64,000 nucleotides of DNA from Chloroflexia bacterium (GCA_035274425.1 DATEOC010000017.1:5456-69455); one strand, 5' to 3'. Positions 35,818-58,900 are shown, numbered from the stretch's first letter. Notes: generated by a model from the sequence alone, not told the origin. Program-made: numbers and translations.

Positions 35818-36057
35818 GTGACAAGGAAAGTTATGGCAGTAATGACATTGAAAACACATAGAGAGAGAGCATTTCTAACCACAAGAGAGCTAGCTGATAA
35901 GGCAGGGGTCACAACCTCAACACTTTGGCGAATTGAGAAGCGCCTACATAAACCACACATTAGCACGATGCGCCGGATCGCTGAGGTGCTGGGCGTCCAC
36001 CCAACGGAGGTAGAAGAATTCGCGGTACGTCGAGAGAGAGACGACTCTGCTAAGTGA
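35818..36057 (+). CDS. XRE-family helix-turn-helix transcriptional regulator
   Basis: LTTRELADKAGVTTSTLWRIEKRLHKPHISTMRRIAEVLGV, an HTH_XRE pattern. Confidence 0.7.
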   Translation: MTRKVMAVMTLKTHRERAFLTTRELADKAGVTTSTLWRIEKRLHKPHISTMRRIAEVLGVHPTEVEEFAVRRERDDSAK

Positions 36058-36923: not shown

Positions 36924-39631
36924 GTTTCGATAACCTCCTCTCCTGGGACCATTTTAGAATGACCCTGGATTTCGTCGTCATTGCCGTCATTCAGGCGTAA
37001 GGCATCGTCATTGCGGCCTATTTCACTGTCACCCTTTTGGATAACAGCGTCACTAACAGCATCGCTTTCGGGCGTGGGTATGACGGTAATGACGGGCGTG
37101 ACGCTGTTTTGCACCTTCATTCTAAGAGAGATAGGACGCTTAGTACCGCTCCTATTCAAGAACTGAACATTCAAGCCAAGTTGCCGCAAATTGGGAGCGA
37201 TACGTCGTAAGCAGCCGGAGAGGTCGTTTGGTCGTTTGGGCCAGCCATCCGGTGTTCGGGCATTCTCGCCGTGATTCGCAAAGGAGTTCAACGCGGCCAA
37301 TAACTCGCTTGCAGAACCTACCCACTCGCCGCCGATAACCCCCGATACAAACTCCTGAAGTTTAGCCGCGATAGGTTCCGCCTCCAGTGCGAGGGTATTC
37401 GCTTCGGCGCGGTTGCCAGTGTAAGCTAGCATGAATGCACCTGCTCTTAGCCCCAATGCAGGCTCGGCAGCAGTGACCCACATCGCGAAGTCTGCCATGC
37501 GAGGTTTGCGTTTCAAGCGTACATTAGGGAGGTTCTTGATCGCCATGCACACAGCATCGAGCAGCACACCCAAGATGCGAGGTCGCACCGCCTCAAAGTT
37601 TGCCCATAAGCGACTCTCTTCCATACGTGCATCATCGGGTATTGGTTGAAGCAGCAGGATTACGCCTCGGTCCAACAGGTCGGGACGAGTTATCACATCC
37701 GTTATAGATGTGAGCATTACGGGACGCTGGGCCTCAAAGATAGTCTCTTCCGTACCTGAGTAAAGCTCACGGGTGGCGTAACCGCCGCCAGTGGAGAGCC
37801 TACAAAGTGCATCTGAGAGCCAGGCGGACATGTGCGAGAGATTATCAAATGTGGGCATCCATGCATTAGTAGCGGCAAGAATGAGGTCTTGTCCATTTCT
37901 AGGCTCTGCTCGTAGAGGTGTCTTGTTGGGGTCAACCAAACTGCGTATGATACGCGCCAACGTGCTTTTCGCAGTCCCTTGCTCACCACTTATTGCAGCC
38001 AGGGGATATGGGCCTTCTGGCTTGAATGCACCAATCAAAACCCCCAGGAAAAGTACCCATCCTTCTTCATTTGCGAAGTTCACGAAAGGCCGCAAGTCTT
38101 CTATGCTGCCGCCGCGTTCTGGAATGGGAAGATGTAGCATCCCTTTCGGGCGCTTGAAGCGCACCGGCGCGGCATCACCGTGTATGACTTGCCATCCGTC
38201 AGCCCGCAGTTCTACCACCTTCCAATCTTTTTGTGCCAGGTCCAGATAGATAATATCTCCATCGCGTGCTAATCTGACGTAAACCTCGCGCTCCTTACCT
38301 TGATAGGTTGCTTCACCTTCGAGTGAAATAATTGCATCTTGTAAGGCTTGAGCTCCTGGTACGCGCCCCGTCTCGTTATAGAAGCGTTGGGAGAGCCATG
38401 CCTTGAAAGCCCTCTCCCTGATAGGCCACGTCTCTTTATGCTCCTCTGTGGGAAGTGTTGCAAACGCCTCCTTTTCGGGTGTGTGCCAAAGCTCCACCCC
38501 TTCTACATGGACAAGCTCAACCAGGGTGCTTGATTGCGTCTTCGTCACAGCCGCAGGCGCATTGCTACTCTCTGCTGGTTCGTCTTCGCTGCCATTGGAT
38601 GTAGGGCACTCTTCCGTGCTCTTACCGTATATTGGTCCGCCATAACCCCGTTTGTTCAACTCTGAGGCTGCTGCTGCGAAATCCCCCTTATGCTTAAGTT
38701 TCGTATAGACGCTGAACTTACTATAGCCGCGCTCCGGCTCGAACTCTGTTGATGTAGTGAAGGCGTAGAAAAGGTCAGAGCCTTTATAGTTGATGCTGGC
38801 GCTGATACCCTCGCGCTTGCCTGGCCGTCTTAGATACGTGATTCCTCCCGACTCATAGACGCGCTGCCAACCTTCGGTATACAAGCCTGTATCTTCCCAT
38901 GAGGCAAGGCGATTGAAGGCGTCACCGGGGCGCGCAACGCCGTTCCCATCTGCACCTGCATTCTGCTTGCCGCTACTTTGTTCATGCGCCTCTTCCCTCG
39001 GCATCTGGTCGAATGAGCGGGCCAATTCCCACAGTAACTCTTGCTCTTCCGGTGTGATGACTACTAACGTTGAGATGCCGCCCTGTAAGAGTTCATATGG
39101 TCGCCCAGAAGGGTGTACCTTACCACCCGAAGGCGCTACTATCATGTACCCACCCTCGCCCCGCGTTTCAATTAGCACTTGAATCTTATCGCTTGGGTGC
39201 TTCATCTCATCGGGCTGCTTAGGTCGCCTTGCCAGCTTGGTATTACCTAGTGCGTTGGAGCATCTGTAAAGCCAATGGATACCGCCGCCAGGGGTACGCT
39301 CTAAGTATCCATCCTCAATCTTCCCAATCAAGCCTCCCAGGCCGACCTCAAGCGCCAATTGCTTATACTGCCCATAAGCCTGATAGTCATCGAACTCAAG
39401 CAACGTGAGGCCACCACTCACCAGTCCGCCTATGAAGCCCACCCCACATCGCCCATCAGCATACCATTCAAGTACCTTATCGCGTGGTGGCCGGGCCGAC
39501 TGGTACTGTTTCCATTCACCCTCCGGCTGCTTGGAACCATCCTCTAGAGGCGGCACGATACAAATGCCTGCTTTGTATGCCTCTTTGACGGTTGCCTGGA
39601 TCGCCTGAATAGTAGGAGTTGCGGCGCTCAT
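36911..39631 (-). CDS. Replication protein: N-terminal bifunctional DNA primase-polymerase (Prim-Pol) domain fused to a P-loop NTPase (D5/P4-type helicase-like) domain
   Basis: Prim-Pol-like N-terminus (GICIVPPLEDGSKQP...GVGFIGG...LLEFDD...IETRGEGGYMIVAPS). Walker A GEQGTAKST. Start set at MSAATPT (39631), which has GGGGGA about 10 nt upstream. The ORF track begins 31 codons earlier. Confidence 0.7.
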   Translation of the reverse strand: MSAATPTIQAIQATVKEAYKAGICIVPPLEDGSKQPEGEWKQYQSARPPRDKVLEWYADGRCGVGFIGGLVSGGLTLLEFDDYQAYGQYKQLALEVGLGGLIGKIEDGYLERTPGGGIHWLYRCSNALGNTKLARRPKQPDEMKHPSDKIQVLIETRGEGGYMIVAPSGGKVHPSGRPYELLQGGISTLVVITPEEQELLWELARSFDQMPREEAHEQSSGKQNAGADGNGVARPGDAFNRLASWEDTGLYTEGWQRVYESGGITYLRRPGKREGISASINYKGSDLFYAFTTSTEFEPERGYSKFSVYTKLKHKGDFAAAASELNKRGYGGPIYGKSTEECPTSNGSEDEPAESSNAPAAVTKTQSSTLVELVHVEGVELWHTPEKEAFATLPTEEHKETWPIRERAFKAWLSQRFYNETGRVPGAQALQDAIISLEGEATYQGKEREVYVRLARDGDIIYLDLAQKDWKVVELRADGWQVIHGDAAPVRFKRPKGMLHLPIPERGGSIEDLRPFVNFANEEGWVLFLGVLIGAFKPEGPYPLAAISGEQGTAKSTLARIIRSLVDPNKTPLRAEPRNGQDLILAATNAWMPTFDNLSHMSAWLSDALCRLSTGGGYATRELYSGTEETIFEAQRPVMLTSITDVITRPDLLDRGVILLLQPIPDDARMEESRLWANFEAVRPRILGVLLDAVCMAIKNLPNVRLKRKPRMADFAMWVTAAEPALGLRAGAFMLAYTGNRAEANTLALEAEPIAAKLQEFVSGVIGGEWVGSASELLAALNSFANHGENARTPDGWPKRPNDLSGCLRRIAPNLRQLGLNVQFLNRSGTKRPISLRMKVQNSVTPVITVIPTPESDAVSDAVIQKGDSEIGRNDDALRLNDGNDDEIQGHSKMVPGEEVIETWTF

Positions 39632-39713
39632 AGACACAAATCCCCCAACTCGCCTTTGCACTGCGCCTGGCCCCAAATAGCTCCCTTGCATCTGTTGTTG
39701 GTGCTGTATGACA

Positions 39714-40034
39714 TTAGCGCGCACCCCCTACTTCCCACTTCGAGGCGGTCTCAGGATGTTCAACCTGCGAAACCACCGCACTTTGTTCTGCAAGCCCTGC
39801 CAGTAATGTAGGTGTGTGAAATCTCAATAGTTTGCCGAGCCGCACTTGACCTGGTAGGCCTCCGTTAGTGCGGGCAAGCTCATACATCTTAGACCTGCCT
39901 ACGTGCAATAGGTTCGCAGCCTCAGTTGCGTCTATGAATAACGGCAATTCTTCTACACTACCGTTGCGCAATGTTCTCATTGTCTGTACCTCCAATCTCT
40001 TTAGTCTTTGCCTGCACACCCTGGTTATTACCAT
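39714..40034 (-). CDS. Excisionase-family HTH DNA-binding protein
   Basis: LFIDATEAANLLHVGRSKMYELARTNGGLPGQVRLGKLLRF, an HTH_17-like pattern. Confidence 0.5.
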   Translation of the reverse strand: MVITRVCRQRLKRLEVQTMRTLRNGSVEELPLFIDATEAANLLHVGRSKMYELARTNGGLPGQVRLGKLLRFHTPTLLAGLAEQSAVVSQVEHPETASKWEVGGAR

Positions 40035-41362: not shown

Positions 41363-41572
41363 CTATTGCAGAGGAGCAAGCACGCGACTGTTGTGGTAGA
41401 GATCGTCAAACGTCAGTGTGCGGACCTTGCGGTCTTTCAGCCACTTTTCTGCTACATGGTAGCCGCCGATGTGGAAGTCCCACACCTGTGGTGACACGTC
41501 CTCGAAGTATTGCGTCTTGTTGATAGGGATATGGACCGGCTGATTACCTTGTGGCGATATGTACGACCTCAT
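41363..41572 (-). pseudogene. Remnant encoding only the C-terminal ~70 aa of a type IIG/IIL (MmeI-like) restriction-modification or BREX PglX-type methyltransferase
   Basis: VWDFHIGGYHVAEKWLKDRKVRTLTFDDLYH matches the conserved C-terminal motif (VW.F.IGGYQV..KWLK.R) of the MmeI/PglX family. There is an in-frame stop immediately upstream, so the rest of the gene is absent. Confidence 0.5.
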
Positions 41573-41878: not shown

Positions 41879-42106
41879 TTGACTATTGTGGGAACAACAA
41901 AAACTCGACAGGTGCTGGGTGCCCAGATGAAGCGCTATCGTAGATTATTGCGACTTTCCCAACAAGACCTGTCCAAACTGTCTGGCCTTAATCGAAGCTA
42001 TCTGGGAAGCGTTGAACGTGGTGAGCGTAATATTGGGATAGATAACCTAGAGGAAGTTGCTAAAGCACTAGGAATTGAAGCCTGGCAACTTCTGCGCGAG
42101 GAATGA
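41879..42106 (+). CDS. Controller (C) protein of a restriction-modification system (XRE-type HTH)
   Basis: RSYLGSVERGERNIGIDNLEEVAKALGIEAWQLL closely follows the C-protein pattern (R.YIS.VERG.RN.SL..L.KIA.AL). A TTGTgggaACAA palindrome lies within the first 50 nt, so the true start may be the downstream MKRYRR (41927). Confidence 0.6.
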   Translation: MTIVGTTKTRQVLGAQMKRYRRLLRLSQQDLSKLSGLNRSYLGSVERGERNIGIDNLEEVAKALGIEAWQLLREE

Positions 42107-42115
42107 TCCCCACAT

Positions 42116-43378
42116 CTATAGGTCCGGTTTTCGCAGTACAAGTATTCCATCCTTCTTGCCTGCTCCATTTCCATGATAGTCGGCGCGGGCAGTGTATGCA
42201 TATTTTCCGACGCCAAAATGAGTTGTTCGATAAATTATCTGCGTAAGTTCAAAACCAATACTAATCGCTATCTCAGAACACATCGCCAGTACAGGCACTA
42301 GCTCTCCGTGGATTGTAGCATCACCTAGAACAACACAGCAGTAACAGCCGGGTTGGAGCACAGTGAGCGCCTGCAAAAGCATTTGGCGCTGGTTGTCGAA
42401 GTACGATTGGTATATCTCCTTCTTTGTGGCTGGCCAAGCACGAATTTCTAAGCTACGAAGTGTTTCCAAGTCATATTGTCCCCAGAGTTCGGGGAAACCC
42501 TTTGCCCATTGAAACTCAAGGTTATAAGCCGGAAAGTAATCAAAGGAATTAAGATAAGGTGGATGTGCGATTATCAAACCTATCGGCTCTTCCTTCGTGA
42601 CAGGTAGCCGGGACAATTCGCGATTGTCTGCTAGCTCGGCCACCGCTGACACATTAGTACGCGTGCGCAAATTCCATTCCATCTCCCGGTCTATCATCTC
42701 TCGTACCTTCTTAGCATAAGCCTTCCATACAGGACGTGGCCTTTTGTCCTTATTTATGTGAGGTCGGATTTCACCGTCATAGGCATTGGATACACGACGA
42801 ATGATAGCAAAATACGCTAGTGTAAAGAACTCACGATATTCGTCTTCCTGGAGTTGAAGAATGCATGATTTGAGTATAGCAAGACTGTTTCTTGATAACT
42901 CACTGAACCATTTGTCAACGCTAGGCGTGTTTGGAAGATATTGTTTAGCAATATCGAGGGATGCGTTGTACGTATATTTTGACCTATTTGTTATCAGATC
43001 CTCGCTGCTTAGTAGCAATGAGTAATGTTCTTCCAGCAACGCACTTAAGTCTTGCCAGCGCCTATTTAGCTCAACTACCGAGTAGTTACGGCACTTTACG
43101 CGACATGCAAGAATAGCAAAAGGATTAACATCTACACCAATCGAGTTATAACCGGCTAGTTTAGCTTCAACCAGTGTTGTACCTGACCCGGCATAGTTGT
43201 CGAGTATGGTCATATTGGGGCGAGCGAATTCATCAATGAGTTTCTTCGCTACTAGAGAAGGGAACTTACCGTAGTACCTGAAGAAGTTGTGAGTGAGGTA
43301 GGCAAGCTCTGAAATTGACTCCGAGATGTCCCAAGTTTGCGTGGGTACATTAGCAACCTCGTCAAATAGCGTAGGCAT
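42116..43378 (-). CDS. DNA methyltransferase (N6-adenine/N4-cytosine amino-MTase family), motif I before motif IV
   Basis: Motif I ILDNYAGSGTTLVEA (FxGxG). Motif IV LIIAHPPY ((D/N/S)PPY-like) ~200 aa downstream. AT-richer than the host. Confidence 0.7.
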   Translation of the reverse strand: MPTLFDEVANVPTQTWDISESISELAYLTHNFFRYYGKFPSLVAKKLIDEFARPNMTILDNYAGSGTTLVEAKLAGYNSIGVDVNPFAILACRVKCRNYSVVELNRRWQDLSALLEEHYSLLLSSEDLITNRSKYTYNASLDIAKQYLPNTPSVDKWFSELSRNSLAILKSCILQLQEDEYREFFTLAYFAIIRRVSNAYDGEIRPHINKDKRPRPVWKAYAKKVREMIDREMEWNLRTRTNVSAVAELADNRELSRLPVTKEEPIGLIIAHPPYLNSFDYFPAYNLEFQWAKGFPELWGQYDLETLRSLEIRAWPATKKEIYQSYFDNQRQMLLQALTVLQPGCYCCVVLGDATIHGELVPVLAMCSEIAISIGFELTQIIYRTTHFGVGKYAYTARADYHGNGAGKKDGILVLRKPDL

Positions 43379-43496
43379 GATTGCTCCTTATAAGTATCAG
43401 CTTCATATTGAGTTCATCATACCTAATCTGTGGGGACGAGTCAACAGTTATGCACATCAATCATAAGTACTGCGATCTACACAAGGAGGCTATTCG

Positions 43497-44543
43497 ATGG
43501 ACTACACTGAGGGGGACATAGAGACGGAGGCACTTCCTGGGCAAAGAACAACACAGGAGGGCATCTCGAAAATATTCTACTTTTTTGAGCGCTACACAAC
43601 ATTATCTAGTGGCCGCACAATCGGTCGGAAAATCGGTGTGGTCCAGGAGATTGTAGTTCGTAGCTATTTGTTACAGTATGGACGTTTGGCTGATGCTGTG
43701 ATCTTCGAGCCGCAACTTCCTGGTTACTCTGGAGCAACCCACAAAGTAGAGTTCGTGTTTTGTCAGCCGATCAAAGTAGTAGAATTTGGTCTAGGATGTT
43801 CTAGTCCAATTGGATCCTGCCAATTTACGCTGTTGTCGATAGATACGGAAAAGATGCGGGCGACATTCTCAGTAACGAACGGAGAAAGAGAACAAAAAGC
43901 AACCTTGATACCCTTTCAAGTGCTGGATAGCGCAAAAGGGAATAAGGGTAAAGGTGTACTCTCATTCGGAGCAACTGTCAAGATAAGCACTCTCACCGAT
44001 GATCGGGTCAGGCTTGTCGTTCTTGACCGCGCAGACGTAAGAGCGTCCGTTGAGAGCAAACGGGTTGGAGCACAGCGTTTTTCTGGCTCTGATAAGCTCG
44101 GTGCAGGTATTCAGACTATCGAAAAGGCAAAGCAAGCTTCTTTGGTGGCCATTGATGCCGACCTCCTGTTTAATGGACAGCTAAAAGTACTTTCAGTACC
44201 TGGGGCAACTAGGCGCTACATTTCTGTGGTTGTTCTAGGTAACGGTGTTCACTGGACCGAGAAAGACTTGAGCGTGCTAAAGACTTATGTAGACTTTACA
44301 TTCCTAATTCCTGACGACTCTATCATTCGGTACGCGGAACATGTACTCCAACTCGCAACAGAAGCTGGCCACCCCTTCATTGATTTCTTTCAATCGTATT
44401 TTGAGGGAATGACCAAAGCGGTTCCCGATGGATTTACTGTAGGCGAGGGGGACTTTCAGGTTCTAAGGCCGGAAACAGAGACGCGAACACTGTCGGATAT
44501 TCTCGATTCGCAACTGGACACTTACCCAATAGTTGAAGCATAG
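43497..44543 (+). CDS. Candidate restriction endonuclease partner of the adjacent methyltransferase (hypothetical protein)
   Basis: Inference from position: divergent from the MTase, next to a C gene, in lower-GC DNA. No nuclease motif recognised; type II REases are rarely recognisable by eye. Confidence 0.35.
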   Translation: MDYTEGDIETEALPGQRTTQEGISKIFYFFERYTTLSSGRTIGRKIGVVQEIVVRSYLLQYGRLADAVIFEPQLPGYSGATHKVEFVFCQPIKVVEFGLGCSSPIGSCQFTLLSIDTEKMRATFSVTNGEREQKATLIPFQVLDSAKGNKGKGVLSFGATVKISTLTDDRVRLVVLDRADVRASVESKRVGAQRFSGSDKLGAGIQTIEKAKQASLVAIDADLLFNGQLKVLSVPGATRRYISVVVLGNGVHWTEKDLSVLKTYVDFTFLIPDDSIIRYAEHVLQLATEAGHPFIDFFQSYFEGMTKAVPDGFTVGEGDFQVLRPETETRTLSDILDSQLDTYPIVEA

Positions 44544-44775
44544 CAATAAGCTCAAAATAGAGATGAACCGTAGTGTTGACAGCAGCCCTTCAACGCATAA
44601 GGTAGGCATATCTTCTTAGTCACAAATTTATCACACCATATGCATAATCAACCCATCTCAACGATCACCAAGTAACATAGTAGGCAAATCCACAGGCACA
44701 AACCCCACTACTCATCTATCCCCAACCATCACCACTCTCTCGAATCTCGCCTTCGGCACAAATATAAAGTCTTCT

Positions 44776-47700
44776 CTAATAAGCAGATAGAAGTTTGACT
44801 TCATCTGCAATCACGACCGGGTGCATCTTCAAAGCTATAGTATCGCTGTGCCTCAGATCATCAGGTGGCTGCACTCCTACCCCGCGACCCTTCCCGCTTA
44901 CTTGGACACGTCCCGTAATTATGAAGGGACCGTGCCCACCGTTGACTAACACTTTCCCATTGCCCTGGTAGGCATCGGAAAATAGCACCACCTCTATAAG
45001 TCCGTCTCGGTCCTGTATGGATAGGAAGAGCATCCACTTGCCATCTTTACCCCTATGCCTGCGACCTGCCACCGCAATTCCTGCCACCTTCACATTATGG
45101 TCTGCATATCGGTGTAGCTCGCTCGATGGAATAGCGCCCGGCACTTCCAGCCACTCCATCTCATTGTGACTCAAGGTAAACCCTAACGCCTCTTGCTCCA
45201 ACTTCAGTTTTTCGGTTGGTGTATAGTCATCCAACTGTGGCACGTCAATGTGTAGCGTATTCCTGCCTAATATCTTAGGGTTGCCAATGCCCCCACCTGC
45301 ACCACGATCTGCACTAGGATGAATGAAGTCCCCACCTATAGCTATTTGCAACCCCATGCCTTTGCCATCCGAGCCTGTAGCGAATAGTCTATCTGCGATT
45401 GACTGGCGACTTGTACTCCTCACTGTAAGGCTACGTGTTGACAGGAGAGCTGGCAAGAGCCTCATCATCTGCTTGCGGTTTAGGTCCATTATAGGCTCAT
45501 ATACAGCCTCTATCGTTTCGCCCATGCTTCCACGTATTGACGCAATCGAGGGTATGCTTGCATCTCCTCCCAGGTTATCGCAAGCTCCCACCTTCACCAG
45601 TGCTGTTATCTCCTGCGGACCCATTTCTACCCTCGCCATCAAATCAAGTAGAGAGTGAAACCGCCCGCCGTTGCGCCGCTCATTGAGTATAGCCGCTACC
45701 GTCTTCTCTGATAGACCTTTCACGAACTGCAAGCCGAAGCGGATGCTACGCTGTTCGCCTGAGCCTGTAGGCACTTCGCACCATGAGCCACTTTCGTTTA
45801 CGTGGGGCACAAGTAGCTTTATGCGTAAGCGTCGAGCGTCTTCGACGTAGACGGATGGCCCATAATAACCCCCGCCGTTGTTGATTTGCGCGGCCAGGAA
45901 CATAGCCGGGTAGTGCGCCTTCATATAGGCCGAACGGTAGGCAGTAAGGGCGTAGGAGTGAGCATGAGCCGCGCAGAAGCCGAAGCCCGTATAGCCCGCT
46001 ATTATCTCCCATACCTTCTGAGCCTGTAACTGGTCTATGCCCCGTTCTATCGCCCCCGCTACAAACTGACTTCCCATTTGGGTGCGCTCATCCGCCGAGC
46101 GCGTCTTGCCCAACGCTTTGCGTAGCTTCTCAGCTTCGCCCAGGTTCAGCCCTGCCAGCTTATGCACCAGTTTTAGGAACTGCTCCTGGAACAGTATCAC
46201 TCCTTTAGTGTTCCTCAGTATCTCCTCCATAGAAGGGTGCAGGTAGCTTATCTCCTCTTGCCCTACGTGCCGCCGCACGAAGGCTTCCAGAAAGCCTCCC
46301 TCTAATGGCCCCGGCCTGAATAGAGAAATCGCCACCGCTACATCGTCCAGGTTGCGTGGTCTGAGCCACTTCAATAATCCGCGCATACCCGGACTCTCCA
46401 ACTGGAAGCAGCCGAGGGTATCCCCTTCGGCCATCATGCGATAGGTGCGCTCATCATCTATTGGGATAGCTTGCAGCCATTTTTCTAGTTCACCACCCTT
46501 ACCACCCTTACCACCTTTGCCAGTTGCCATACCTGATGCTTGCACAGCATCCACCAGCGTTGTAAGCGCCCGGCTGCCGAGTATATCCATCTTTACCAGG
46601 CCCAGCACCTCTATGGCATCTTTGTCGTATTGGGTGATAGCCATTGAGGGGTCGCGTGCTGCCCTTTGCAAAGGAACCAGATTAGCCAAAGGGTCGGGCG
46701 TTATGACCACCGCAGCGCAGTGCATACCAGCGTGGCGGGGCAAGCCTTCGATAGCGTGCGCCAGGGCAAAGGCGGTGCGCTCATTGTCATCTCGCAGCTT
46801 TGGAGTCGGGGCGGTATCATTCTCCTCATCATGGGCATCGGATAATGCCTCATATTCCAGCGCCTCTTCCATAGCCTCTATATCACCTGAGCCATCTGGA
46901 TCGCCTGTGCTATCTGAGTCATCTCCATAATCGAAAGCATGGGGAAGGCGGTTAGCCATATAGCTGATGCGGTCTGCCCTTACACCCATGACTTTAGCCA
47001 TCTCTCGCCACGCCGAGCGCAAACGAAATGTGATATGAGTGCCCACCGTCGCCACATGGTCGCGTCCATAACGCTCATATATGTAGTGCAATACCTGGTC
47101 TCGCCCGCGCCAGCACACATCGAGGTCTATGTCCGGCATCTCAAACTCTGCACGTGCAGGGTTCAAGAACCGCTCAAAGAGGAGGTCTTTCTGAATAGGG
47201 TCTACCTGGGTAATACCAAGCACGTATGCCACCAGGCTGTTAGCGGCGGAACCACGCGCCATGATGGGGATGTCTTTCGATTGGGCAAAACGCACTATGT
47301 CATATACGACAAGAAAGTAGGCAGAGAAGCCTAGCGCCTCTATAATCTCTAGCTCATGCTTCAGGCGGGCTAGAACCTGCTCAGTAAGAGGGCGATAACG
47401 GCTAGTGGCTCCGGCAAAACATAGCTTCCAAAGTTTGGAGAACGGGGTCTCACCACTCGGCAAATCCACGCCTGGAAAGAGAGGTTTGTAAAGAGGGAGT
47501 TCAAGATTGCACTGTTCGGCTATGAAGTGAGTATTGGCTATGGCCTGTGGGTAGTCAGCAAAGAGGTGGGCCATCTCATCCGCCGACTTGAAGTAGCGTT
47601 CGGTCCCTACTTCCTCTTGTAGAGCTGCATCGCCTCTTAGCTCACCTATAGCCTGCGTATGCGCACTGTATTTGCGCCTGATACCTTTGCGAGCAGAGGC

Positions 47701-48480
47701 TAGAGCACGGGCGGTAGCTGCATCTTTGTCGGCAAGGTAAAGCACATCGTTTGTCGCTACGATGGGCACTCCCATGTCATTCGCCAGACTGATCAGGGCG
47801 GGCAGAGTGGCAGCATCCTTATCGTCAAGCAACTGCAATTCGATAAAGACGTTCCCCTCGCCGAAGGCCGTTATGAGAGTGCCTATAGACCTTGCCGCTT
47901 GCTCCATCTTGCCTCGCCTGACCAGTGAATTGACAAGCCCATGCCGTCCACCAGATAAGGCTATCAGCCCTCTGGCATGGCGACCCGATAACAATAGCTC
48001 GCGGGGTAGAAGCGGCTCTTTTTGTAGTCGTAGCGAAGGCGAAGCTGCGAGCTTGGATTTCTTCGGCTTATCGGTAAAGCCGAACACTGGCACACCCCAC
48101 ACCCCATCCTCCCAAAATGGCGCTTCTTCCTCTTCATTATAGCCCGGTGGCTCTAAGGCTTGGGGGTCGGCGTTGAGTCGGAGGACGGTTGCCAACTGGC
48201 AGAGGTTGCGATAGCCGTCCATGTTCCGGGCCAATAGCACTAGACTTGATGATTGCACCTCGCCCGCTTCGTCAAGGTCAATCTCCATGCCCACTATCGG
48301 CTTGATACCTGATTTCTGAGCCTGGACATAGAAAGAGACTGCCCCATATAGGCTATTGTGGTCCGTGAGCGCCAGCGCGCTCATGCCTTGCTTTTTGGCT
48401 GTGCTGATGAGGTTCTGAGGCGTGGCCGTGCCTTCTAGGAGGGAGTAACCGGAATGGCAATGGAGATGCACAAACCCCAT
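44776..48480 (-). CDS. dnaE: DNA polymerase III alpha subunit family protein (DnaE/DnaE2-like) with unusual acidic/low-complexity insertions
   Basis: N-terminal PHP domain HLHCHSGYSLLEG...ALTDHNSLYG. Fingers/palm blocks (GSAANSLVAYVLGIT, PDIDLDV, FGFCAAHAHSYA). C-terminal OB-fold. Insertions include DDSDSTGDPDGSGDIEAMEEALEYEALSDAHDEEND and GKGGKGGKGG. Confidence 0.8.
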   Translation of the reverse strand: MGFVHLHCHSGYSLLEGTATPQNLISTAKKQGMSALALTDHNSLYGAVSFYVQAQKSGIKPIVGMEIDLDEAGEVQSSSLVLLARNMDGYRNLCQLATVLRLNADPQALEPPGYNEEEEAPFWEDGVWGVPVFGFTDKPKKSKLAASPSLRLQKEPLLPRELLLSGRHARGLIALSGGRHGLVNSLVRRGKMEQAARSIGTLITAFGEGNVFIELQLLDDKDAATLPALISLANDMGVPIVATNDVLYLADKDAATARALASARKGIRRKYSAHTQAIGELRGDAALQEEVGTERYFKSADEMAHLFADYPQAIANTHFIAEQCNLELPLYKPLFPGVDLPSGETPFSKLWKLCFAGATSRYRPLTEQVLARLKHELEIIEALGFSAYFLVVYDIVRFAQSKDIPIMARGSAANSLVAYVLGITQVDPIQKDLLFERFLNPARAEFEMPDIDLDVCWRGRDQVLHYIYERYGRDHVATVGTHITFRLRSAWREMAKVMGVRADRISYMANRLPHAFDYGDDSDSTGDPDGSGDIEAMEEALEYEALSDAHDEENDTAPTPKLRDDNERTAFALAHAIEGLPRHAGMHCAAVVITPDPLANLVPLQRAARDPSMAITQYDKDAIEVLGLVKMDILGSRALTTLVDAVQASGMATGKGGKGGKGGELEKWLQAIPIDDERTYRMMAEGDTLGCFQLESPGMRGLLKWLRPRNLDDVAVAISLFRPGPLEGGFLEAFVRRHVGQEEISYLHPSMEEILRNTKGVILFQEQFLKLVHKLAGLNLGEAEKLRKALGKTRSADERTQMGSQFVAGAIERGIDQLQAQKVWEIIAGYTGFGFCAAHAHSYALTAYRSAYMKAHYPAMFLAAQINNGGGYYGPSVYVEDARRLRIKLLVPHVNESGSWCEVPTGSGEQRSIRFGLQFVKGLSEKTVAAILNERRNGGRFHSLLDLMARVEMGPQEITALVKVGACDNLGGDASIPSIASIRGSMGETIEAVYEPIMDLNRKQMMRLLPALLSTRSLTVRSTSRQSIADRLFATGSDGKGMGLQIAIGGDFIHPSADRGAGGGIGNPKILGRNTLHIDVPQLDDYTPTEKLKLEQEALGFTLSHNEMEWLEVPGAIPSSELHRYADHNVKVAGIAVAGRRHRGKDGKWMLFLSIQDRDGLIEVVLFSDAYQGNGKVLVNGGHGPFIITGRVQVSGKGRGVGVQPPDDLRHSDTIALKMHPVVIADEVKLLSAY

Positions 48481-48804
48481 GACAGACCTACTTCATTAGT
48501 CCAACAGCATGAATGTAACGTCGTTCTAATTACATACATATCACAGAACTAATGTTCTAGTCAAGAGGATTGGCTATTATTGGTGCAAATCTGCTGATAG
48601 ATATGCTATAATCCCTTTACGGTGACGTAATCTCAGTTTGATAAAATGACATATTAAGTGCGCGGTCAGGCACCATTTTTTATCACCAGTTTATCACGGC
48701 CTGCTTATAACAACCTATCCCGAACCATCACTAAGCATCACTGCTCACGCACAAATAGGTACGGAGGCATACAATCTAACGCCAACTAACACCTACTTGT
48801 GTAA

Positions 48805-48821
48805 TCCCGCCTCCGGCACCT
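48805..48821. repeat. attR-like direct repeat: 17-bp copy of the tRNA-Leu 3' end
   Basis: tcccgcctccggcacct is identical to 33444-33460. It sits within a 665-bp AT-rich non-coding region. Confidence 0.7.
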
Positions 48822-49146
48822 TCCCCGTCTCTATGTTCACTTCCACTTGCAGTGATATTCTAAAACTAGGCATAAAAAGAGATACAAAACGGACCTCTTT
48901 TTCTTTTCGCTCACAAATCGCTCATTTAACTACATATTACTCCACCTGACAGCATATCCTGTTACTTTATCCCGCAATTTAGCCAATTCTGGTGATGCGG
49001 CCTCTTACTTCATAGCTTAAGATAGAGCTTACTTCCACCTTTTCTGCGGTTCGTGTCTACTCCCTATTGACCAGAAGGTGCTGCTGAGTGGTATAATTGG
49101 TCGCATAATTTCTGCGGTCTAATAGTCTATTGCCGGAGGTTGGGCA

Positions 49147-52100
49147 GTGCGTACCCAAGATCGTCTAGCAACTACGTCATCCGCGTCGTCTACATTCCTA
49201 CACAACCTGGGCAAGCCTGCGACGGGGGAAGGGTCCGAGACCCACTCCTACGATCACCTCTCCCTTGCCCAACGGCGTATATGGGCATTGGACCAGTTGG
49301 TCCCAGGCAGCCCACAACATAACTCTTATATTGCCCTCCACCTCGCCGGACCGCTTGATCCACAAAGGCTGGAACGGTGCCTCAAAAAGGTCGGAGAACG
49401 GCATGATATTTTGCGGACTGCTTTCCCCCTGATTGATGGGCAGCCGGTCCAGATAGTAGCAGACCTCCCTTTCACTTTGCCCTTGCCCTTGTCCGACCTC
49501 AGTGGCCTGCCTGAGGCGGAGAAGGGCGACGCAGTAAAGCGTCTGGCGAGGGAAGAAGCGCAATACCCCTTCGACCTGGCGCAAGGCCGGTTGATACGGG
49601 CCGCACTGCTGCGCCTGGGCAACGATGAGCACCTACTGCTGCTGACGGCGCATGGGATTGTATGCGACGATCTCTCCATCAGGGTACTATGTGAGGAGTT
49701 GGCCGCGCTCTACGCCGCCTCGTCCACGGAAGAGCATTCGCCCCTCCCTCAGCCGCCGATGCAGTATGTCGACTATGCAGCTCGGCAGGAGGAGTGGCTG
49801 AAAGGGGAGGAGGCACAGGCCCAGATTGCATACTGGAAGGGGCAATTGGGCGGCAACCCTCCCGTGCTCGAATTACCTGCTGACCGGCCACGACCTCCGG
49901 TGCAGACGCATTACGGCGCTCGCCAACCTCTGCTCTTACCCTCCGAATTGGTGGAGGCGGTCAAGAGATTGAGTCAGCAGGAAGGGGTGTCGTTGTTCCT
50001 GACGATGCTATCGGCGTTCGAGACATTGCTCTATCGTTACACGGGACAGAGCGACATTGTGCTCGGTACGGAGACCGCTGGCCGCACCTCACCTGAGGGA
50101 GCAGGCTCTATAGGTCCACTTGCCAACATGCTGGCGTTGCGCACCAGCCTGGAAGGAGATCCCAGCTTCCGCGAGTTGCTGAAACGGGTGGGGCAGGTAG
50201 TTGCTGATGCGCACGCCAATGGAGACGTGCCTTTCGAGAAGCTGGTAGAAGAGTTACAGCCTGAGCGCGATCTGAGCCGCGCACCCTTCTTTGGGCTGAC
50301 CTTTGCTTTTCAAGACGCTCCGCCCCAACTGGAGTTTCCGGGTCTAATCGGCTCTATCCTCGACCTTGATCCGGGCATCGCGAAGTATGACCTCTCTCTG
50401 TCTATTGTAGACACGGAGGGTGACCTGAGTGGATGGGCCGAGTACAACAGTGATCTCTTTGACGCCTCGACCATCCGCAGGATGCTTGGGCATTTTCAGA
50501 TGCTGTTGGGAAGTATCGTGTCTGACCCTGGCCTTGTAATTTCAAAGCTGCCTATGCTGACCGATGCCGAGCGCCAGCAGTTGCTTGTCGGGTGGAACAG
50601 CACCGGCACGGGCTACCCACAGAGCGCGTGTATACACGAGTTGTTTGAGAGACAGGTGGAGAAGACGCCAGATGCGCCGGCTATCAGTTTCAAGGGTAAA
50701 CGTCTGACGTACCGGCAACTCAACAGCAAAGCTAACAAGCTGGCTCACCACCTGCGGGCGCTTGGGGTGGGTCCTGAGAAGCCGGTCGGGGTCTGCATGG
50801 AGCGCTCGCTCAACCTGGTGGCCGCTATGATGGGGGTGCTGAAAGCGGGCGGGGCCTATGTGCCCCTCGACCCAGCTTACCCGCACGACCGTCTCTCCTT
50901 TATGCTCGCGGACTCGCAGGCCCCAGTGTTGCTTACGCAGAGAGGGCTGTATGCGGAGCTTGCAACGCTGGGGGAGCATGGGGCGAAGGTGGTCTACCTC
51001 GATGATGGGTGGGAGGAGGCCATCGCGGGTGAGGAAGGGAATCCCGCGCCCATTTCCAACTCAGATAACCTGGCCTACATCCTCTATACCTCTGGCTCGA
51101 CCGGACGCCCAAAGGGAGTGAGCATCGAGCATAGGAGTGGCATTGCGCTCATAGAATGGGCGAAAGAGACGTATACGGAGGAAGAGCTTTCCAGGGTGTT
51201 GGCCTCGACCTCGATCTCGTTCGACCTCTCGGTGTTCGAGTTATTCGTCACATTGAGCGGTGGGGGTATGGTCGTCCTCGTAGAGAACGCGCTTCACCTG
51301 CCCACCCTCGGCCCTGAGGAACAAGTCACGCTGGTAAACACCGTCCCTTCGGCGATTGCCGAGCTACTGCGCACTGGAGGCGTGCCCACTTCGGTGCGCG
51401 TGGTCAACCTCGCCGGAGAGCCGTTGCAGCAAACGCTAGTCCAGCAGCTTTACGCACAGGTGCCGACCTGCCGGGTGTTCAACCTTTACGGCCCGACCGA
51501 GGACACCACTTACTCCACCTTCGCGCTCATGGAGAAGGGGAGTACGACGTTGCCGACCATCGGGCGGCCAATCGCCAACAGCCAGGTCTACCTGCTCGAC
51601 CGGCACGGAGAGCCGGTGCCGGTGGGCGTGCCAGGCGAGTTGTACATGGGCGGGGCAGGACTCGCCAGGGGCTACCTAAACCGCCCCGACCTCACTGCTG
51701 AGCGGTTCGTACCAAACCCCTTTTCTGATTTTGGATTTTGGATTTTGGATTTTGGAGTGGACCCTGATAATCCAAAATCCAAAATCCAAAATCCAAAATC
51801 AGGAGGGCGGCTGTACAGGACGGGCGACCTGGCGTCTTACCTGCCGGACGGCAACATCCGGTTTCATGGGCGGCTGGACCACCAGGTGAAACTCCGGGGG
51901 TTCCGCATCGAGCTTGGTGAGATCGAGGCGGTGCTGAGGCAGTACCCTGCCTTGCAGGATGTGGTGCTGATGGTGAGGGAAGATGTCGCGGGTGACAAGA
52001 GGTTGGTGGCTTACGTAGTCCCCAGCCCAGACTCCTCACTCGTCAGCTCTCAGCTGCGCGATTATCTGAGGGAGAGGCTGCCGGAATACATGGTCCCGTC

Positions 52101-55100
52101 GGCTTTTGTGGTGCTGGAGAAGCTCCCCCTCACACCAAATGGCAAGGTGGACCGCCGCTCTCTGCCCGCCCCTGAACTGGATAGGATGGAGGGCGGCGCT
52201 GAGTATGCCGCGCCGCGAAGCCCTGTAGAGGAAGCGCTTGCCGGTATCTGGGCCTCGGTGCTCGGCATCGAGCGTGTGGGGATACATGACAACTTCTTCG
52301 ACCTGGGAGGGCACTCGCTACTAGCGACTCAGGTGATCTCCAGGGTGCGGGAGGTGTTACATGCAGAGTTGCCGCTACGCCGCTTCTTCGAGACGCCTAC
52401 CGTGGCCGGTCTGGGTGAGAGTATCGAAGCAGCCCTTAAGGGAGGTTCAGTTGCTCCTGCCCCGTCCCTCCATCGCCTGCCCAGGAGAGAGAATTTACCC
52501 CTGTCGTTCGCGCAGCAGAGGCTCTGGTTCCTCGACCAGTGGCAGCCCGCTAGTGCCGCCTATAACATACCGGTTGTCATGCGCCTGGACGGGTCGCTCC
52601 AGGAGGAGGCGCTTCGGAAGAGCATCAACGCGATAGTCGAGAGGCATGAAGCTCTGCGCACAACCTTCTCGGTAGCAGGAGATCGGCCCGTGCAGGTGAT
52701 CGCTCCTGCCCTGGACGTTCCCCTGCCCGTTGTGGACCTGGGCAGTGTGCCCGACGAAAAGAGGGAAGCGGAGGCCCAACGGCTGGTCAAGGAGGAAGCA
52801 CGACGCCCGTTCGACCTGGCTCGGGGACCCTTGTTGCGTGCTCGCTTGCTGCGCCTGGACGAGGAGAGACACCAACTCGTGTTGGTCATGCACCACATCA
52901 TCTCGGATGGGTGGTCTATGGGCGTGCTGGCGCAGGAGCTGGCGGAGCTTTATAGGGCGTTCGCTGCCGGGGAGGCTCCGTCCCTTCGCGACCTGCCGGT
53001 ACAATATGCCGATTACACCATCTGGCAGCGAGAGTGGCTGCAAGGCGAGGCGCTCCAGGGCCAGCTCGATTATTGGAAGGGGCAACTGGCCGGCGCACCC
53101 GCCGCTCTCGAGATGCCAACAGATCGCCCTCGCCCCGCTATGCTCACTTATCGCGGGGCAAAGCAGCCATACCGTCTTACCGGAGACCTTGCCCAGGAGT
53201 TGAAGGGAATGGTCCGGCGCGAAGGGGTGACGATGTACATGGCGCTCCTTTCGGCTTTCACGGCGCTCCTCCACCGATACACGGGGCAGACCGACATCGT
53301 GGTAGGCTCGCCCATAGCCAACCGTACCAGGCCTGAGATCGAGGGGCTGATCGGCTTCTTCGTCAACATGCTGGCGTTACGGACCGACCTTTCAGGCGAC
53401 CCGACCTTCCGGGAGTTGCTGGGCCGGGTGCGAGAGGCGTCGCTGGGGGCGTATGGCCACCAGGACTTGCCGTTCGACAGGCTGGTGGAGGAGATGCAGC
53501 ATGAGCGCAATCTGGCCTACCATCCCATCTTCCAGGTAGCCTTCGTCCTCCAGAATGCGCCTACGGTAGCCCTGCAACTGCCAGGCTTGAGTATCGCCAA
53601 CCTTGAGGTTGATAAGGTTGACATGGGCACGGCGCGGTTTGACCTGATGTTTATCATCGAGGAAAGAGAGGAGGGGCTGTCGGTTGAGGTCGAATACAGC
53701 ACCGACCTGTTTGATGCTTCAACGATTACCCGCATGTTGGAGCACTACAGGGTCCTGTTGGAAGGAGTTGTCGCACAACCGGATCAGCGGGTATCAGAGC
53801 TGCCCCTGCTCACAGACGAGGAGCGGCAGCAGTTGCTCGTGGAGTGGAACAGCACGCATACCGACTACCCGCGAGACGAGTGCATTCACCCCCTCTTTGA
53901 GCGACAGGCGCAGCAGACGCCCGACGCAGTTGCGCTCATCTTCGGGGAAAAGCGCCTCACTTACCAGGAGTTGGACCAACGCGCTAACCGGTTAGCTCGC
54001 CACCTGAGAGATATGGGTATAGGCCGGGAAACGCTGGTAGGGGTCTGCATGGAGCGCTCTATAGAGATGGTGGTGGCGCTTTTGGGAGTGCTGAAAGCGG
54101 GTGGGGCGTATGTGCCTCTCGACCCCTCCTACCCGGAGGAGCGCCTGCGCTTCATGATGGAAGACACGCAAATTTCTGTGTTGTTGACTCAAGCGGTGCT
54201 GGCGGAGAAGCTCCCCGCTCATGTGGCGCGGGTAGTGCGCTTAGATACCGACTGGAGCGATATTGCCCGACAAAGCAGTGAGCCACTAGAGAGCGAGACG
54301 ACGGCAGAGAACCTGGCATACGTGATGTACACCTCCGGCTCCACCGGGCAGCCGAAGGGGATCGGCGTGCCGCACCGGGGAGTGGTCCGGCTGGTCAAGA
54401 ATACCAATTATGCTGACCTTTCCGACGACCAGGTATTACTCCAGTTCGCGCCTATCTCATTCGATGCGTCCACGCTCGAAATCTGGGGCAGCCTGCTCAA
54501 CGGAGCGCGCCTGGTGATTTACCCAACCACCGATGTGCCCCTCCTGGAAGAGCTGGCCCAGGTTATTGAAGAGTACGGCGTCACCACGCTATGGCTGACG
54601 GCGGGGCTGTTCCACCACATGGTAGAAGGCGGCCACCTGCGAGGGCTGACTAGCTTGCGCCAGCTGCTGGCTGGTGGGGACGTTCTATCGGCCCCTCACG
54701 TCAGGAAGGCTATCCAACAACTGGGAAGTGGCTGCACGCTGATAAACGGCTACGGCCCCACAGAGAACACAACCTTCACCTGCTGCTACCCTATGACCCA
54801 GTCGGCGCAGGTAGGCGACTCGGTGAGCATAGGCAGACCTATCGCCAACACGCAGGTCTATCTGCTCGACCGGCATTTGCAGCCCGTGCCGGTAGGGGTG
54901 GCAGGGGAGCTTTATATAGGTGGAGACGGCCTGGCGAGGGGTTACCTGAACCGCCCCAACCTCACGGCGGAGCGCTTCGTGCCCAACCCCTTCTTGAGTG
55001 CGGAATTCGGAGTGCGGAGTGCGGAATGGGACGAAGAGGCAAAAGAAGGTAGTAAGCAGAAGGCAGAAGGCAGTAATTACAATCCGCACTCCGCAGGTTC

Positions 55101-55914: not shown

Positions 55915-55924
55915 GGTTGATGCA

Positions 55925-58900
55925 ATGAGCACTATGGACAGACCACTGGCAGACCTCTCACCCAAGGAGAAGCGCGCCCTCCTCGCGGAGCAGGTCAGGC
56001 AGAGAGCTGCGCAGACTGACGCTCCCAGGCATTTCCCCCTGTCGTTTGCCCAGATGCGTCTGTGGTTCCTCGACCGCATGGAAGGGGGCAGCCCCTTTTA
56101 CAACGTCTCGTTTGCCACGCGCCTGACGGGGCCGCTCCATCTGGAGGCGTTGAGGCGTAGCATCAGCGAGATCGTGCGTCGCCATGACACATTGCGGAGC
56201 AGCTTCGTGACGGCGGACGAGGATCCTGTGCAGGTTGCCGCGTCGTACGCGGATGTGCCCCTGCCGGTCCAGGATGTGCGACATCTACCTGCGCAGGAGC
56301 GCGAACGGGAGGCCCACTCGCTCCTAACCGAGGAAGCGCAGCGCCCCTTCGACCTGGCGCAAGCTCCCCTGGTACGCACGTTGATAATACGGCTGGATGA
56401 GGAAGAGCACCTCCTCCTGGTGACGATGCACCACATCATCGCGGATGGGTGGTCGTTCCATCTTTTCCACGGTGAATTGCAGACTTTGTATTCGGCCTTC
56501 GTCGCCGGCAATCCATCTCCACTACCTGAATTGCCTATCCAGTACGGCGATTACGCTGTCTGGCAGCGAAAGCGGCTGCAAGGCGAGATTCTACAAGCTC
56601 AGCTTGAATACTGGATGAGGCAGATCAGAGGCGCGCCGCCCTTGCTGGAACTGCCCGCTGACCGGCCACGCCCAGCCAGGCAGACCTACAGGGGAGCCAC
56701 CCAATCTATCACTTTGCCGCCGGAACTGGTCCACGAACTGGAGCACCTGAGCAAGCAGGAGGGTGTCACCTTCTTCATGACGTTGTTGGCGGCATTCGAT
56801 GCACTGATCTACCGCTATACAGGCCAGACCGACGTCGTGGTGGGCGCGCCGATAGCGGGGCGCACGCGCAGGGAGGTAGAAGGGTTAATAGGTTTCTTCG
56901 CCAACACCCTACTCTTTAGGGCCGACCTGGGAGGTGAGCCTACTTTCCGCGAGCTTTTGGCCAGGGTCAAGGAAGTGGCGTTGGGCGCATACGACCACCA
57001 GGACCTGCAGTTCGAGCGGCTTGTAGAAGAAGCTCAACCTGAGCGCAACCTGAGCTACAATCCGCTCTTCCAGGTGATGTTTGGACTGGAGAACACGCCC
57101 CGCGAAATTCGGGAGCAATCGGGCCTGGTGTTCGACACTGCCCTCTTCGAAAGCGGCACATCCATCGTTGATCTGTCTCTCACGATCATCGACACTCCAC
57201 AGGGTACCCAGGCGCAGGCTGAATACAGTACAGATTTGTTCGATAGAGACACGATTACCAGGTTGCTGGGGCACTACCGCACGCTGTTGGAGGCAGTGGC
57301 CCGCGACCCCCAGACTCCGGTCTCCCAACTGCCGATCCTGACCGAGAGTGAGCGGCGCACACTCTTGGTCGAATGGAACGATACCCGTAATGACTACCCA
57401 CGAGAGTTATGCGTCCACCAGTTATTCGCGGCGCAGGCGAACCGCACGCCCGACAAGGTTGCCCTGGTGTATGGCAAGCAGAAGCTGACGTACCGGGAAC
57501 TGAGTGAGCGCGCAAACAAGCTGGCCCATTACCTGCGGACGCTTGGGGTAGGCCCTGACACCCTGGTGGGCATATGCGTGGAGCGCTCGATAGAGATGGT
57601 GGTAGGTGTGCTCGGAGTGCTGAAGGCAGGTGGGGCATACGTGCCACTAGACCCTACATACCCGAAGGAGCGGCTGGCCTACATGGTAGAGGATTCGGGG
57701 GCCGGAGTGCTGCTCTCTCAAGAGGAGTTAGCCGGGCTTGCTCAAGACCTGGCCGGACAGCGCGCCCACAGGGTGCTCCTCGACCGCGATTGGAAGGGGA
57801 TAGAGCCCCAGCCCGCAGGCGATCCGGCCCCAGAGGGTGGCCCCGACAACCTGGCCTACGTTATTTATACCTCCGGCTCTACAGGCAGGCCCAAGGGGGT
57901 GCAGGTCCCCCACCGTGCCCTAACTAACCACTTATGGTCCATGAAAGCTAAGCCTGGGCTGGCGGAGGATGATGTGCTGTTGGCCGTCACTTCCCTCTCG
58001 TTCGATATAGCCGCCTTAGAGTTGTACCTGCCCCTCGTCACCGGTGCTACGCTGGTGCTGGCTAGCAAGGATATCGCCTCCGATGGCATTCTCCTGGGAA
58101 GGGAAATAGCCGAGAGGGGAGCGACTGTAATGCAGGGCACGCCCGCGTCGTGGCGGCTGCTGTTCATAGCCGATGCCTGGCCTGCCCGGGCAACAGGTAC
58201 CCTGAAGGCGCTGTGCGGTGGTGAGGCGCTCCCTGTTTCGTTGGCTTATGACCTGTCGTGCAGGGCAGTCGCCGTGTGGAACATGTACGGCCCTACCGAA
58301 ACGTGCATCTGGTCTACCATCCACAAGGTGGAGATAGGGGAACAGAAAGGTCCCAACTCCTCCGTAACCAGTATAGGCAGGCCCATTGCCAACACGCAGG
58401 TGTACCTTCTGGATCGCCACATGCAGCCTGTGCCAATAGGGGTGGCAGGGGAGCTTTATATAGGCGGTGATGGCCTGGCGCGAGGCTACCTGGGCAGGCC
58501 AGACCTGACTGCCGAGCGTTTCGTACCCAACCCCTTTTCGAATGCGGAATTCGGAGTGCGGAATGCGGAATCAGCTTCTAATCCGTACTCCGCAGGTTCT
58601 TGGGCTACGCCCAATTCAGGCACTCCGCACTCAGGAGAGAGGCTGTACAAGACGGGGGACCTGGCTCGCTATCTGCCTGACGGAAGGATAGAGTTCCTGG
58701 GGCGGATAGACCAGCAGGTGAAGGTGCGTGGGTTCCGCATCGAGCTTGGCGAGATTGAGGCTGTGCTGGGCCAGCACCCTGCTCTGCGTGAAGCGGTCGT
58801 AAGCGTGCGGGGTAGAGAGAGTGACGACAAACGGTTGGTAGCTTACGTTGTGGCGCACCCCGGTCAGGCTCCATCTTCAACAGAGCTGCGCAACCTCCTG

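Follow-up and report, generated by a model that had tools for sequence, protein, structure and literature searches.

A 64,000-nucleotide stretch of the genome of a Chloroflexia bacterium (GCA_035274425.1 DATEOC010000017.1:5456-69455), here called the window, contains a 15.4-kb integrative element at a tRNA-Leu gene, and within this element lies dnaE, a gene for a DNA polymerase of the DnaE family. With a probability of roughly 0.63, the product of this gene is a stand-alone, DNA-damage-inducible, DnaE2-like accessory polymerase that is carried as variable cargo by a composite element encoding a tyrosine integrase. Three features point to the damage-inducible accessory role, namely, a LexA-type box in the conserved promoter, an apparently dead PHP site in the protein, and a sister group of the iPolY-DnaE2 type. 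Most likely, the element-borne DnaE would be a translesion or error-prone repair enzyme rather than the main replicase of the cell. An earlier note on this DNA, made from the sequence alone, had offered a choice between a replicative and an error-prone enzyme, and the same three features make the replicative option the less likely one. The gene and its promoter are as follows (coordinates are those of the window):

44776 to 48480, minus strand: dnaE, DnaE-family polymerase, 1234 aa, ATG start (matches to Pfam, TIGR00594 and PDB)
48545 to 48564, minus strand: dnaE promoter core (recognized by conservation), with the 14-bp palindrome AGAAC-N4-GTTCT (48545-48558; LexA/Cheo-type box) directly after the -35-like TTGACT (48559-48564), and the AT-rich TGTGATATGTAT downstream

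The predicted protein is a C-family (DnaE-type) polymerase with a PHP-Pol3-(HhH)2 core and an intact catalytic triad. It matches TIGR00594 with a score of 760 (cut-off, 434), DnaE structures in PDB down to 1e-141, and the Pfam domains PHP (residues 5-216), DNA_pol3_alpha (349-635), fingers (669-813) and HHH_6 (887-972), all above the cut-offs. The palm aspartates D450, D452 and D632 are invariant in 36 members of the clade to which the protein belongs; homologs at 54-85% identity come only from metagenome-assembled genomes (MAGs) of Chloroflexia/Chloroflexota. The OB match (residues 1137-1195) is below the Pfam threshold; however, the AlphaFold model of residues 800-1234 (mean pLDDT 80.3) contains an OB fold of the aspartyl-tRNA synthetase (AspRS) type, with nothing folded beyond it, and a Foldseek search with this model retrieved DnaE C-terminal regions and AspRS-type OB folds. 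The PHP, fingers/palm and OB fold blocks named in the earlier note are thus all present, as are both low-complexity insertions it described, an acidic stretch (residues 520-555; 46816-46923) and GKGGKGGKGG (residues 654-663; 46492-46521).

The protein ends approximately 39 residues past the Pfam OB match, and both the alignment and the AlphaFold2 model lack a tau-binding C-terminal domain after the OB fold; the matches of the relatives to the DnaE1 model end near position 1060-1070 of 1146. No DnaE2 carries a C-terminal domain, and 91% of the DnaE1 proteins have the tau-binding domain (PMC3919608). Of the earlier comparison with DnaE2/ImuC enzymes, which relied on this early end, the DnaE2-like architecture without any domain past the OB fold stands; membership of the classical ImuC family is not established. 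DnaE1 has an internal beta-clamp motif of the QxxLF type (QADMF in Escherichia coli) after the (HhH)2 domain; at the corresponding alignment columns, the clade carries an insertion instead (ATGSDG...G[LM]Q...), in which the model shows a disordered stretch besides a beta-hairpin and a long helix. An intact reference has H H D H E H C D H as its nine-residue PHP metal site; in the window protein, these residues are H H E H E S G L L, and across the clade, H H E H/R E/D/S/V S/N G L/A L/T/C; positions 6 to 9 are lost throughout, and therefore PHP proofreading is predicted to be dead.

Upstream of the dnaE start, the minus strand reads TTGACT-AGAACATTAGTTCT-GTGATATGTA. The sequence GAAC-N4-GTTC occurs once in the window, at this promoter, and a layout consisting of TTGACT, the box and an AT-rich segment similar to TATGATATGTA is found upstream of essentially all of the approximately 25 clade genes; in three loci, the box differs by one base. 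DNA homology to relatives is limited to 44794-48599; with the closest relatives, it spans only the gene and some 120-145 bp upstream, and the flanks are unrelated. With its non-canonical -10 region, the dnaE promoter was missed by a scan with the sigma-70 consensus, so that it is predicted from conservation only. In Firmicutes and Actinobacteria, LexA has GAAC-N4-GTTC as its operator, and variants of it are reported for Chloroflexi (PMC4951493); given that the box matches this published operator, control by LexA would be the best reading of the dnaE promoter.

The nearest outgroup of the clade also comes from Chloroflexia (P0044, P0047, P0054 and L026; 42-47% identity). In this sister group, a 340-370-aa open reading frame (ORF) homologous to iPolY proteins, which are inactive Y-family polymerases, lies directly upstream of dnaE (loci L026 and L049), with E-values of 5e-9 to the Sphaerobacter iPolY and 9e-16 to the DinB2-like iPolY of Streptomyces coelicolor. 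In L026 (8835-13324), the two genes form an iPolY-dnaE operon behind the same promoter, TTGACT plus GAAC-N4-GTTC; in L049 (729-5079), the cassette lacks the box, and a divergent HTH_3 regulator is located upstream. By predicted gene content, this layout is the iPolY-DnaE2 arrangement of the iPolY-DnaE2B-RecA and DnaE2X-iPolY-ImuB-C-RecA systems (Nucleic Acids Res 2026, PMC12926913). Unlike these systems, the studied clade lost or never had an adjacent iPolY and carries an insertion at the position of the DnaE1-type QxxLF motif; it looks like a derivative in which the polymerase gene stands directly behind the SOS promoter. Two other assignments in the sister group were rejected. A 95-aa ORF downstream of dnaE in locus L050 is not ImuB-C-like, and the identification of the sister group as the Chloroflexia DnaE1 ortholog was dropped; no DnaE from a cultured member of Chloroflexia is among the 120 best matches to P0044.

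The element that carries dnaE is a tRNA-targeting tyrosine-integrase integrative element, with the integrase gene adjacent to attL, the tRNA 3' end duplicated as a direct repeat, and arm repeats at both ends:

33375 to 33459, plus strand: tRNA-Leu, anticodon TAA, the integration target (ARAGORN; the same tRNA-Leu is occupied in contig L054, described below)
33444 to 33460, plus strand: attL core, 17 bp, formed by the tRNA-Leu 3' end (repeated exactly at 48805-48821)
33519 to 33543, plus strand: arm-type repeat, two copies of TTTATCAC adjoining the integrase gene, putative integrase arm-binding sites (repeat family D1)
44601 to 44761, plus strand: decayed inner copy of attR, with a homolog of the P' arm, one TTTATCAC (44627) and the degenerate core TCTCGCCTTCGGCACAA (44745-44761; 13/17), collinear with 48664-48819
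48664 to 48804, plus strand: P' arm, two copies of TTTATCAC at 48679 and 48690 (homologous to the attR arm of the L054 element)
48805 to 48821, plus strand: attR core, exact 17-bp repeat, with host flank from 48822 (48822-48924 homologous to the L054 flank past attR)

The 17-bp direct repeat, TCCCGCCTCCGGCACCT, is identical at 33444-33460 and 48805-48821 and has no further copy in the 64 kb, with up to 3 mismatches allowed. The octamer TTTATCAC occurs 5 times in the window, against 1.08 expected, and always at att arms (2 by attL, 2 by attR and 1 at the inner copy). The GC content falls from approximately 0.59 in the flanks to 0.45-0.54 inside the element. The earlier note had advised comparing the composition of dnaE with that of core genes: the GC content at third codon positions (GC3) is 0.569 in dnaE, lower than in any of the 15 host ORFs tested (0.627-0.752) and similar to that of the element genes (0.44-0.62), and the base composition of dnaE is foreign to the host. 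The occupied arrangement, with both junctions, is present in three assemblies (the NCBI MAG contig, an ENA assembly and a Logan assembly), which may stem from the same reads.

The status of dnaE as cargo follows from comparison with a sister element. The closest relative of the integrase (P0183; 87% identity) is encoded on contig L054 from a closely related host, where the tRNA-Gly/tRNA-Leu pair and, on the tRNA side, the host genes are the same as in the window (80-89% nucleotide identity); taken together, the host flanks on the two sides are 69-89% identical to those of the window. The L054 element (10.3 kb) shares the int-xis-HTH-TubC_N-PrimPol backbone at 73-80% nucleotide identity and lacks both dnaE and the restriction-modification genes. 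Its attR is identical in the core and homologous in the P' arm and in the host flank past the core; because this homology extends across arm, core and flank, the outer repeat at 48805-48821 is the true right end of the element family. Therefore, dnaE is variable cargo that is absent from the host backbone at the tRNA-Leu locus, and the locus is polymorphic between related genomes, with a related element and different cargo in L054. Thus, the exact att repeats and the dnaE-free sister element at the same tRNA-Leu uphold the earlier proposal that the ORF at 44776-48480 is cargo inside the element boundaries. Direct adjacency of tRNA-Leu and dnaE in relatives, proposed at the time as the mark of a host gene, was not what we observed: L054 has the tRNA-Leu without dnaE, and no tRNA-Leu, att core or arm motif was found near the relatives of dnaE at the 24 other loci.

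The inner attR copy makes the element composite. It sits between the restriction enzyme gene and the dnaE stop codon, 15 nt from the latter, and divides dnaE from the part with the integrase, PrimPol and restriction-modification genes. The inner and outer copies are 69% identical over 169 columns (alignment score of 42, against 17.7 +/- 2.6 for shuffled sequences; z = 9.5), and the similarity reaches as far as the T-loop portion of the tRNA. Given a perfect outer copy and a decayed inner one, it was the outer site that served in the last integration, in which all 15.4 kb moved together. The entry of dnaE is most simply, and probably, explained by two related tRNA-Leu elements that would have integrated in tandem in an earlier host, the second one then losing its proximal part by deletion; capture by another recombination route is possible. 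The nested insertions suggested in the earlier note are thus supported insofar as more than one integration occurred, whereas the relic is the inner copy at 44601-44761 and not the distal repeat. A further repeat family, D2 (44687-44718 and 48459-48490; 72%), was taken as part of the arm homology or a chance similarity.

Several results weigh against a stand-alone DnaE2-like enzyme in a LexA-regulated, mobile setting. Characterized DnaE2 enzymes require partners of the ImuB or iPolY type (PMC3919608, PMC12926913), and tblastn searches with ImuA, ImuB, iPolY (four queries) and ImuB-C (three queries) found none anywhere in the window or, at 24 other clade loci, less than 10 kb from the gene, in line with the earlier note, to which no imuA/imuB-like partners were visible. 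The window showed no lexA gene. Against the NCBIfam model for error-prone polymerase, NF004225, the protein stays below the cut-off (687.8 bits against 939), and its N-terminal 480 residues score 211-255 bits against DnaE1/DnaE3-type references and 122-192 bits against DnaE2A, DnaE2B and DnaE2X, for which the first 400 residues of the published sequences served as references. In neighbor-joining trees built from MAFFT alignments, the kind of comparison with named DnaE references that the earlier note had recommended, the clade is sister to the iPolY-linked Chloroflexia group and falls outside all named DnaE2 groups and, indeed, outside every named group, with weakly resolved deep nodes. Finally, a search for the empty attB via exact copies of the flanking non-ribosomal peptide synthetase (NRPS) protein and methyltransferase yielded only the occupied arrangement.

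A few DnaE2B enzymes also lack an identifiable partner (PMC12926913). No recurrent partner emerged for the studied clade either: no Pfam family recurs among 104 neighboring ORFs from 11 loci. The score for the DnaE1 equivalog model, NF004226, is likewise below the cut-off (816.9 bits against 1002), as it is for P0002, P0020 and P0038; the clade and its neighbors are below every equivalog cut-off, and NCBIfam assignment was therefore kept at the superfamily level only. Altogether, the protein is DnaE2-like on the architectural criteria examined and apparently so in its regulation, with membership of any named DnaE2 group not established. Two observations concern its relatives. One MAG (DASWMJ01, isolate SMAG_U3384) holds two clade copies, L012 and L017, on different contigs; these are 67% identical, each with a LexA-box promoter, and represent either true paralogy or a mixed bin. 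In the other case, L002 (9857-13588) and L005 (9857-13576) are 88.8% identical in nucleotide sequence over dnaE and 143 bp of promoter, with homology ending approximately 100 bp before the stop codon and unrelated flanks, which suggests that dnaE and its promoter may move or recombine as a unit.

Other genes between the att repeats, which also encode an HNH protein, are listed below; no capsid, packaging or conjugation genes were found among them.

33547 to 34689, minus strand: tyrosine integrase, 380 aa (Pfam Phage_integrase, 1.5e-27, plus SAM-like N domain; PHROG integrase, 5.8e-80)
34686 to 34982, minus strand: excisionase-like HTH_17 protein, 98 aa (PHROG excisionase/regulator, 3.6e-7; weak Pfam HTH_17)
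35833 to 36057, plus strand: repressor-like HTH_3 protein, 74 aa (PHROG transcriptional repressor/regulator families; HTH_3/HTH_31 in gene calls)
36911 to 39724, minus strand: PrimPol-type primase/polymerase, 937 aa, element replication module (Pfam Prim-Pol, 1.5e-10; PHROG DNA polymerase/primase, 1.9e-55)
41888 to 44543, mixed strands: type II restriction-modification cargo (PADLOC MTase_II, 4.8e-85, and REase_II, 1.3e-14; Pfam HTH_3), comprising the following three genes
41888 to 42106, plus strand: controller-like helix-turn-helix protein, C (Pfam HTH_3)
42116 to 43378, minus strand: methyltransferase, M (PADLOC MTase_II)
43497 to 44543, plus strand: restriction enzyme-like protein, R, 348 aa (PADLOC REase_II)

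The integrase belongs to a family that is large among Chloroflexota MAGs. The C-terminal part of PrimPol is conserved in relatives, and the gene is 73% identical in nucleotide sequence to its L054 counterpart; searches of IMG/VR and the JGI metagenomes for PrimPol relatives gave no viral matches, only distant helicase-domain relatives (42-51% identity). Overlapping the end of PrimPol is a 143-aa ORF (36492-36923) with a TubC N-terminal docking domain (Pfam, 2e-9) and a 194-aa counterpart in L054. The restriction-modification block has the lowest GC content in the window (0.45-0.47), and a 69-aa Type_ISP_C fragment (41363-41572) lies just upstream of it.

With a PrimPol replication module in the same element, DnaE could be the element's own replicase: once the element has been excised, perhaps in an SOS response, its circular form would be primed by the PrimPol primase-helicase and copied by DnaE. 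The lack of structural and conjugation genes, which makes the element satellite-like or integrated-plasmid-like, fits this scheme, as do the intact catalytic residues and the existence of DnaE-type genes on phages and small plasmids, such as the 16-kb pBOT3502 and a 22-kb Cereibacter plasmid; the pBOT3502 enzyme is the top N-terminal reference, at 255 bits. We nevertheless consider this scheme unlikely. The decayed attR between dnaE and PrimPol indicates that the two were not originally one unit, L054 has the int-PrimPol backbone without dnaE, chromosomal copies in the clade keep the LexA-box promoter with no homolog of the integrase or PrimPol, and the sister group is an iPolY-DnaE2 cassette. 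Searches of phage, plasmid and IMG/VR collections found no close DnaE relatives, with nothing above 36% identity. The DnaE proteins of Streptomyces phage Hydra and Clostridium botulinum pBOT3502 resemble the present case as full-length enzymes on small mobile replicons with their own primase function; unlike the window gene, with its promoter in common with chromosomal copies and its absence from the sister element, they are presumed replicases, and the identity to them is at most 36%.

The earlier note had also raised the alternative of a host-owned dnaE, with the distal repeat as a relic. In its full form, dnaE would be the resident, possibly the sole, dnaE of the host, enclosed by successive insertions at tRNA-Leu. 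An intact active site, an N-terminal region that is nearer to DnaE1/DnaE3-type than to DnaE2 references, and the inner att relic, a sign of more than one integration at the locus, are compatible with this, and the essential DnaE of Bacillus subtilis is also SOS-inducible. Furthermore, every bacterium needs DnaE1 or DnaE3 (PMC12926913), and no second dnaE was seen in the 64-kb window; a search by protein accession for the DnaE1 of the same MAG led to candidates from other MAGs. Even so, we regard this alternative as improbable, and the intact outer attR shared with L054, the 24 other loci and GC3 argue against it. At the same tRNA-Leu and with the same flanks, L054 has an element without dnaE; dnaE was enclosed by the last recombination, since it is the outer att copy that is perfect; GC3 is below that of every host ORF tested; and the gene has no tRNA-Leu beside it at the 24 other loci. 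A resident replicase would also be hard to reconcile with the missing tau-binding domain, a dead PHP site with no linked DnaQ, the two divergent copies in one MAG, and the 89% identity of the L002 and L005 genes between unrelated flanks.

Least probable of all is that DnaE belongs to, or is co-selected with, anti-phage defense or counter-defense islands and acts on foreign DNA instead of in lesion bypass, for which co-location alone speaks: a type II restriction-modification system does adjoin dnaE in the window, and the flanks of relatives (L001, L002, L006, L051 and L052, with dnaE homologs at 10001-13700) hold CBASS, SIR2, STAND/NACHT NTPases, EAD1-PNP effectors, toxin-antitoxin pairs, MmeI/Eco57I-type enzymes, RHS toxins and a Tn7-like TniB/transposase, but dnaE has no PADLOC match, no neighbor is conserved among the 104 flanking ORFs, variable islands gather all sorts of transferred genes, the co-location has no background rate to set it against, and the LexA box and iPolY-linked sister group already account for the gene.

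Some features outside the element can be mentioned briefly. The host flank to the right of attR is common to L054 for only about 100 bp, so the locus past attR is also variable among the relatives; a large NRPS cluster (2255-, 1158- and 1166-aa proteins and more; window 49147-64000) begins approximately 325 bp to the right of attR. Between tRNA-Gly (32766-32839) and tRNA-Leu, a 156-aa ORF with HTH_28 and HNH endonuclease domains (32883-33353) may be a small selfish insertion in the tRNA spacer. At the left end of the window (11-8044), two very large secreted-type proteins with SLH, lamin-tail, PLD-nuclease and endonuclease/exonuclease/phosphatase domains may be cell-surface nucleases.

Mobile error-prone polymerases as such are already known, for example, rumAB on the R391/SXT integrative and conjugative elements (ICEs) and mucAB on pKM101. 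To our knowledge, those described comprise multi-subunit cassettes (imuABC, umuDC-like) from proteobacterial plasmids and ICEs. Approximately two thirds of the plasmid-borne C-family polymerases are DnaE2 (PMC3919608), and plasmid-borne imuA-imuB-dnaE2 cassettes were also found in this analysis. The element in the window resembles ICEPni2, which carries imuABC (PMC7466150), and plasmids with these genes in that an SOS-type mutagenic polymerase is cargo near one end of a mobile element and would confer transferable damage tolerance and mutagenesis; it differs in having a single gene without accessory subunits, a small, 15.4-kb integrase/PrimPol carrier without conjugation genes, a Chloroflexia host and a relic att that sets the gene apart. 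With the error-prone, SOS-inducible DnaE2, the window protein shares the PHP-Pol3-(HhH)2-OB architecture without the tau-binding C-terminal domain, the disrupted PHP metal site, a putative LexA-type operator and a patchy distribution consistent with horizontal transfer (PMC3919608, PMC12926913). Unlike DnaE2, its gene has no imuA/imuB nearby, and the protein fails NF004225, is not nested with the DnaE2A references and is approximately 150 residues longer, with clade-specific insertions at 520-555, 654-663 and ~975-1085. The single-gene, partner-less form, the confinement to uncultured Chloroflexia, the small integrase/PrimPol carrier and the composite att structure are new.

Under the reading that we favor, a damage-inducible accessory polymerase, host LexA in an undamaged cell would bind the palindrome between the -35-like hexamer and the AT-rich box and block transcription. 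DNA damage would lead to RecA-stimulated cleavage of LexA, freeing the dnaE promoter; DnaE would then be produced, and its proofreading-free synthesis across lesions would increase survival, damage tolerance and the mutation rate. Since dnaE is flanked by attL and attR, the element, once excised and transferred, would bring this inducible function and the restriction-modification system to a new host. A broader scenario, which we find conceivable and yet rather doubtful, is that of a Chloroflexia-specific DnaE2-type lineage that is now partner-independent: the upstream inactive Y-family subunit would have been lost, the insertion at the clamp position could do the tethering, and one gene with its LexA-controlled promoter would travel among defense/mobile islands and integrative elements, making SOS mutagenesis a single-gene transferable trait.

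An error-prone polymerase on a mobile element would allow inducible mutagenesis and damage tolerance to be gained in one step. The present case would extend this theme to an uncultured soil Chloroflexia host, a small integrase/PrimPol carrier and an apparently partner-less DnaE2-like enzyme. The composite att structure and the dnaE-free sister element provide a clear example of cargo addition to tRNA-integrating elements. If the enzyme works without an ImuB or iPolY adaptor, it would offer a simple system for asking what such adaptors contribute.

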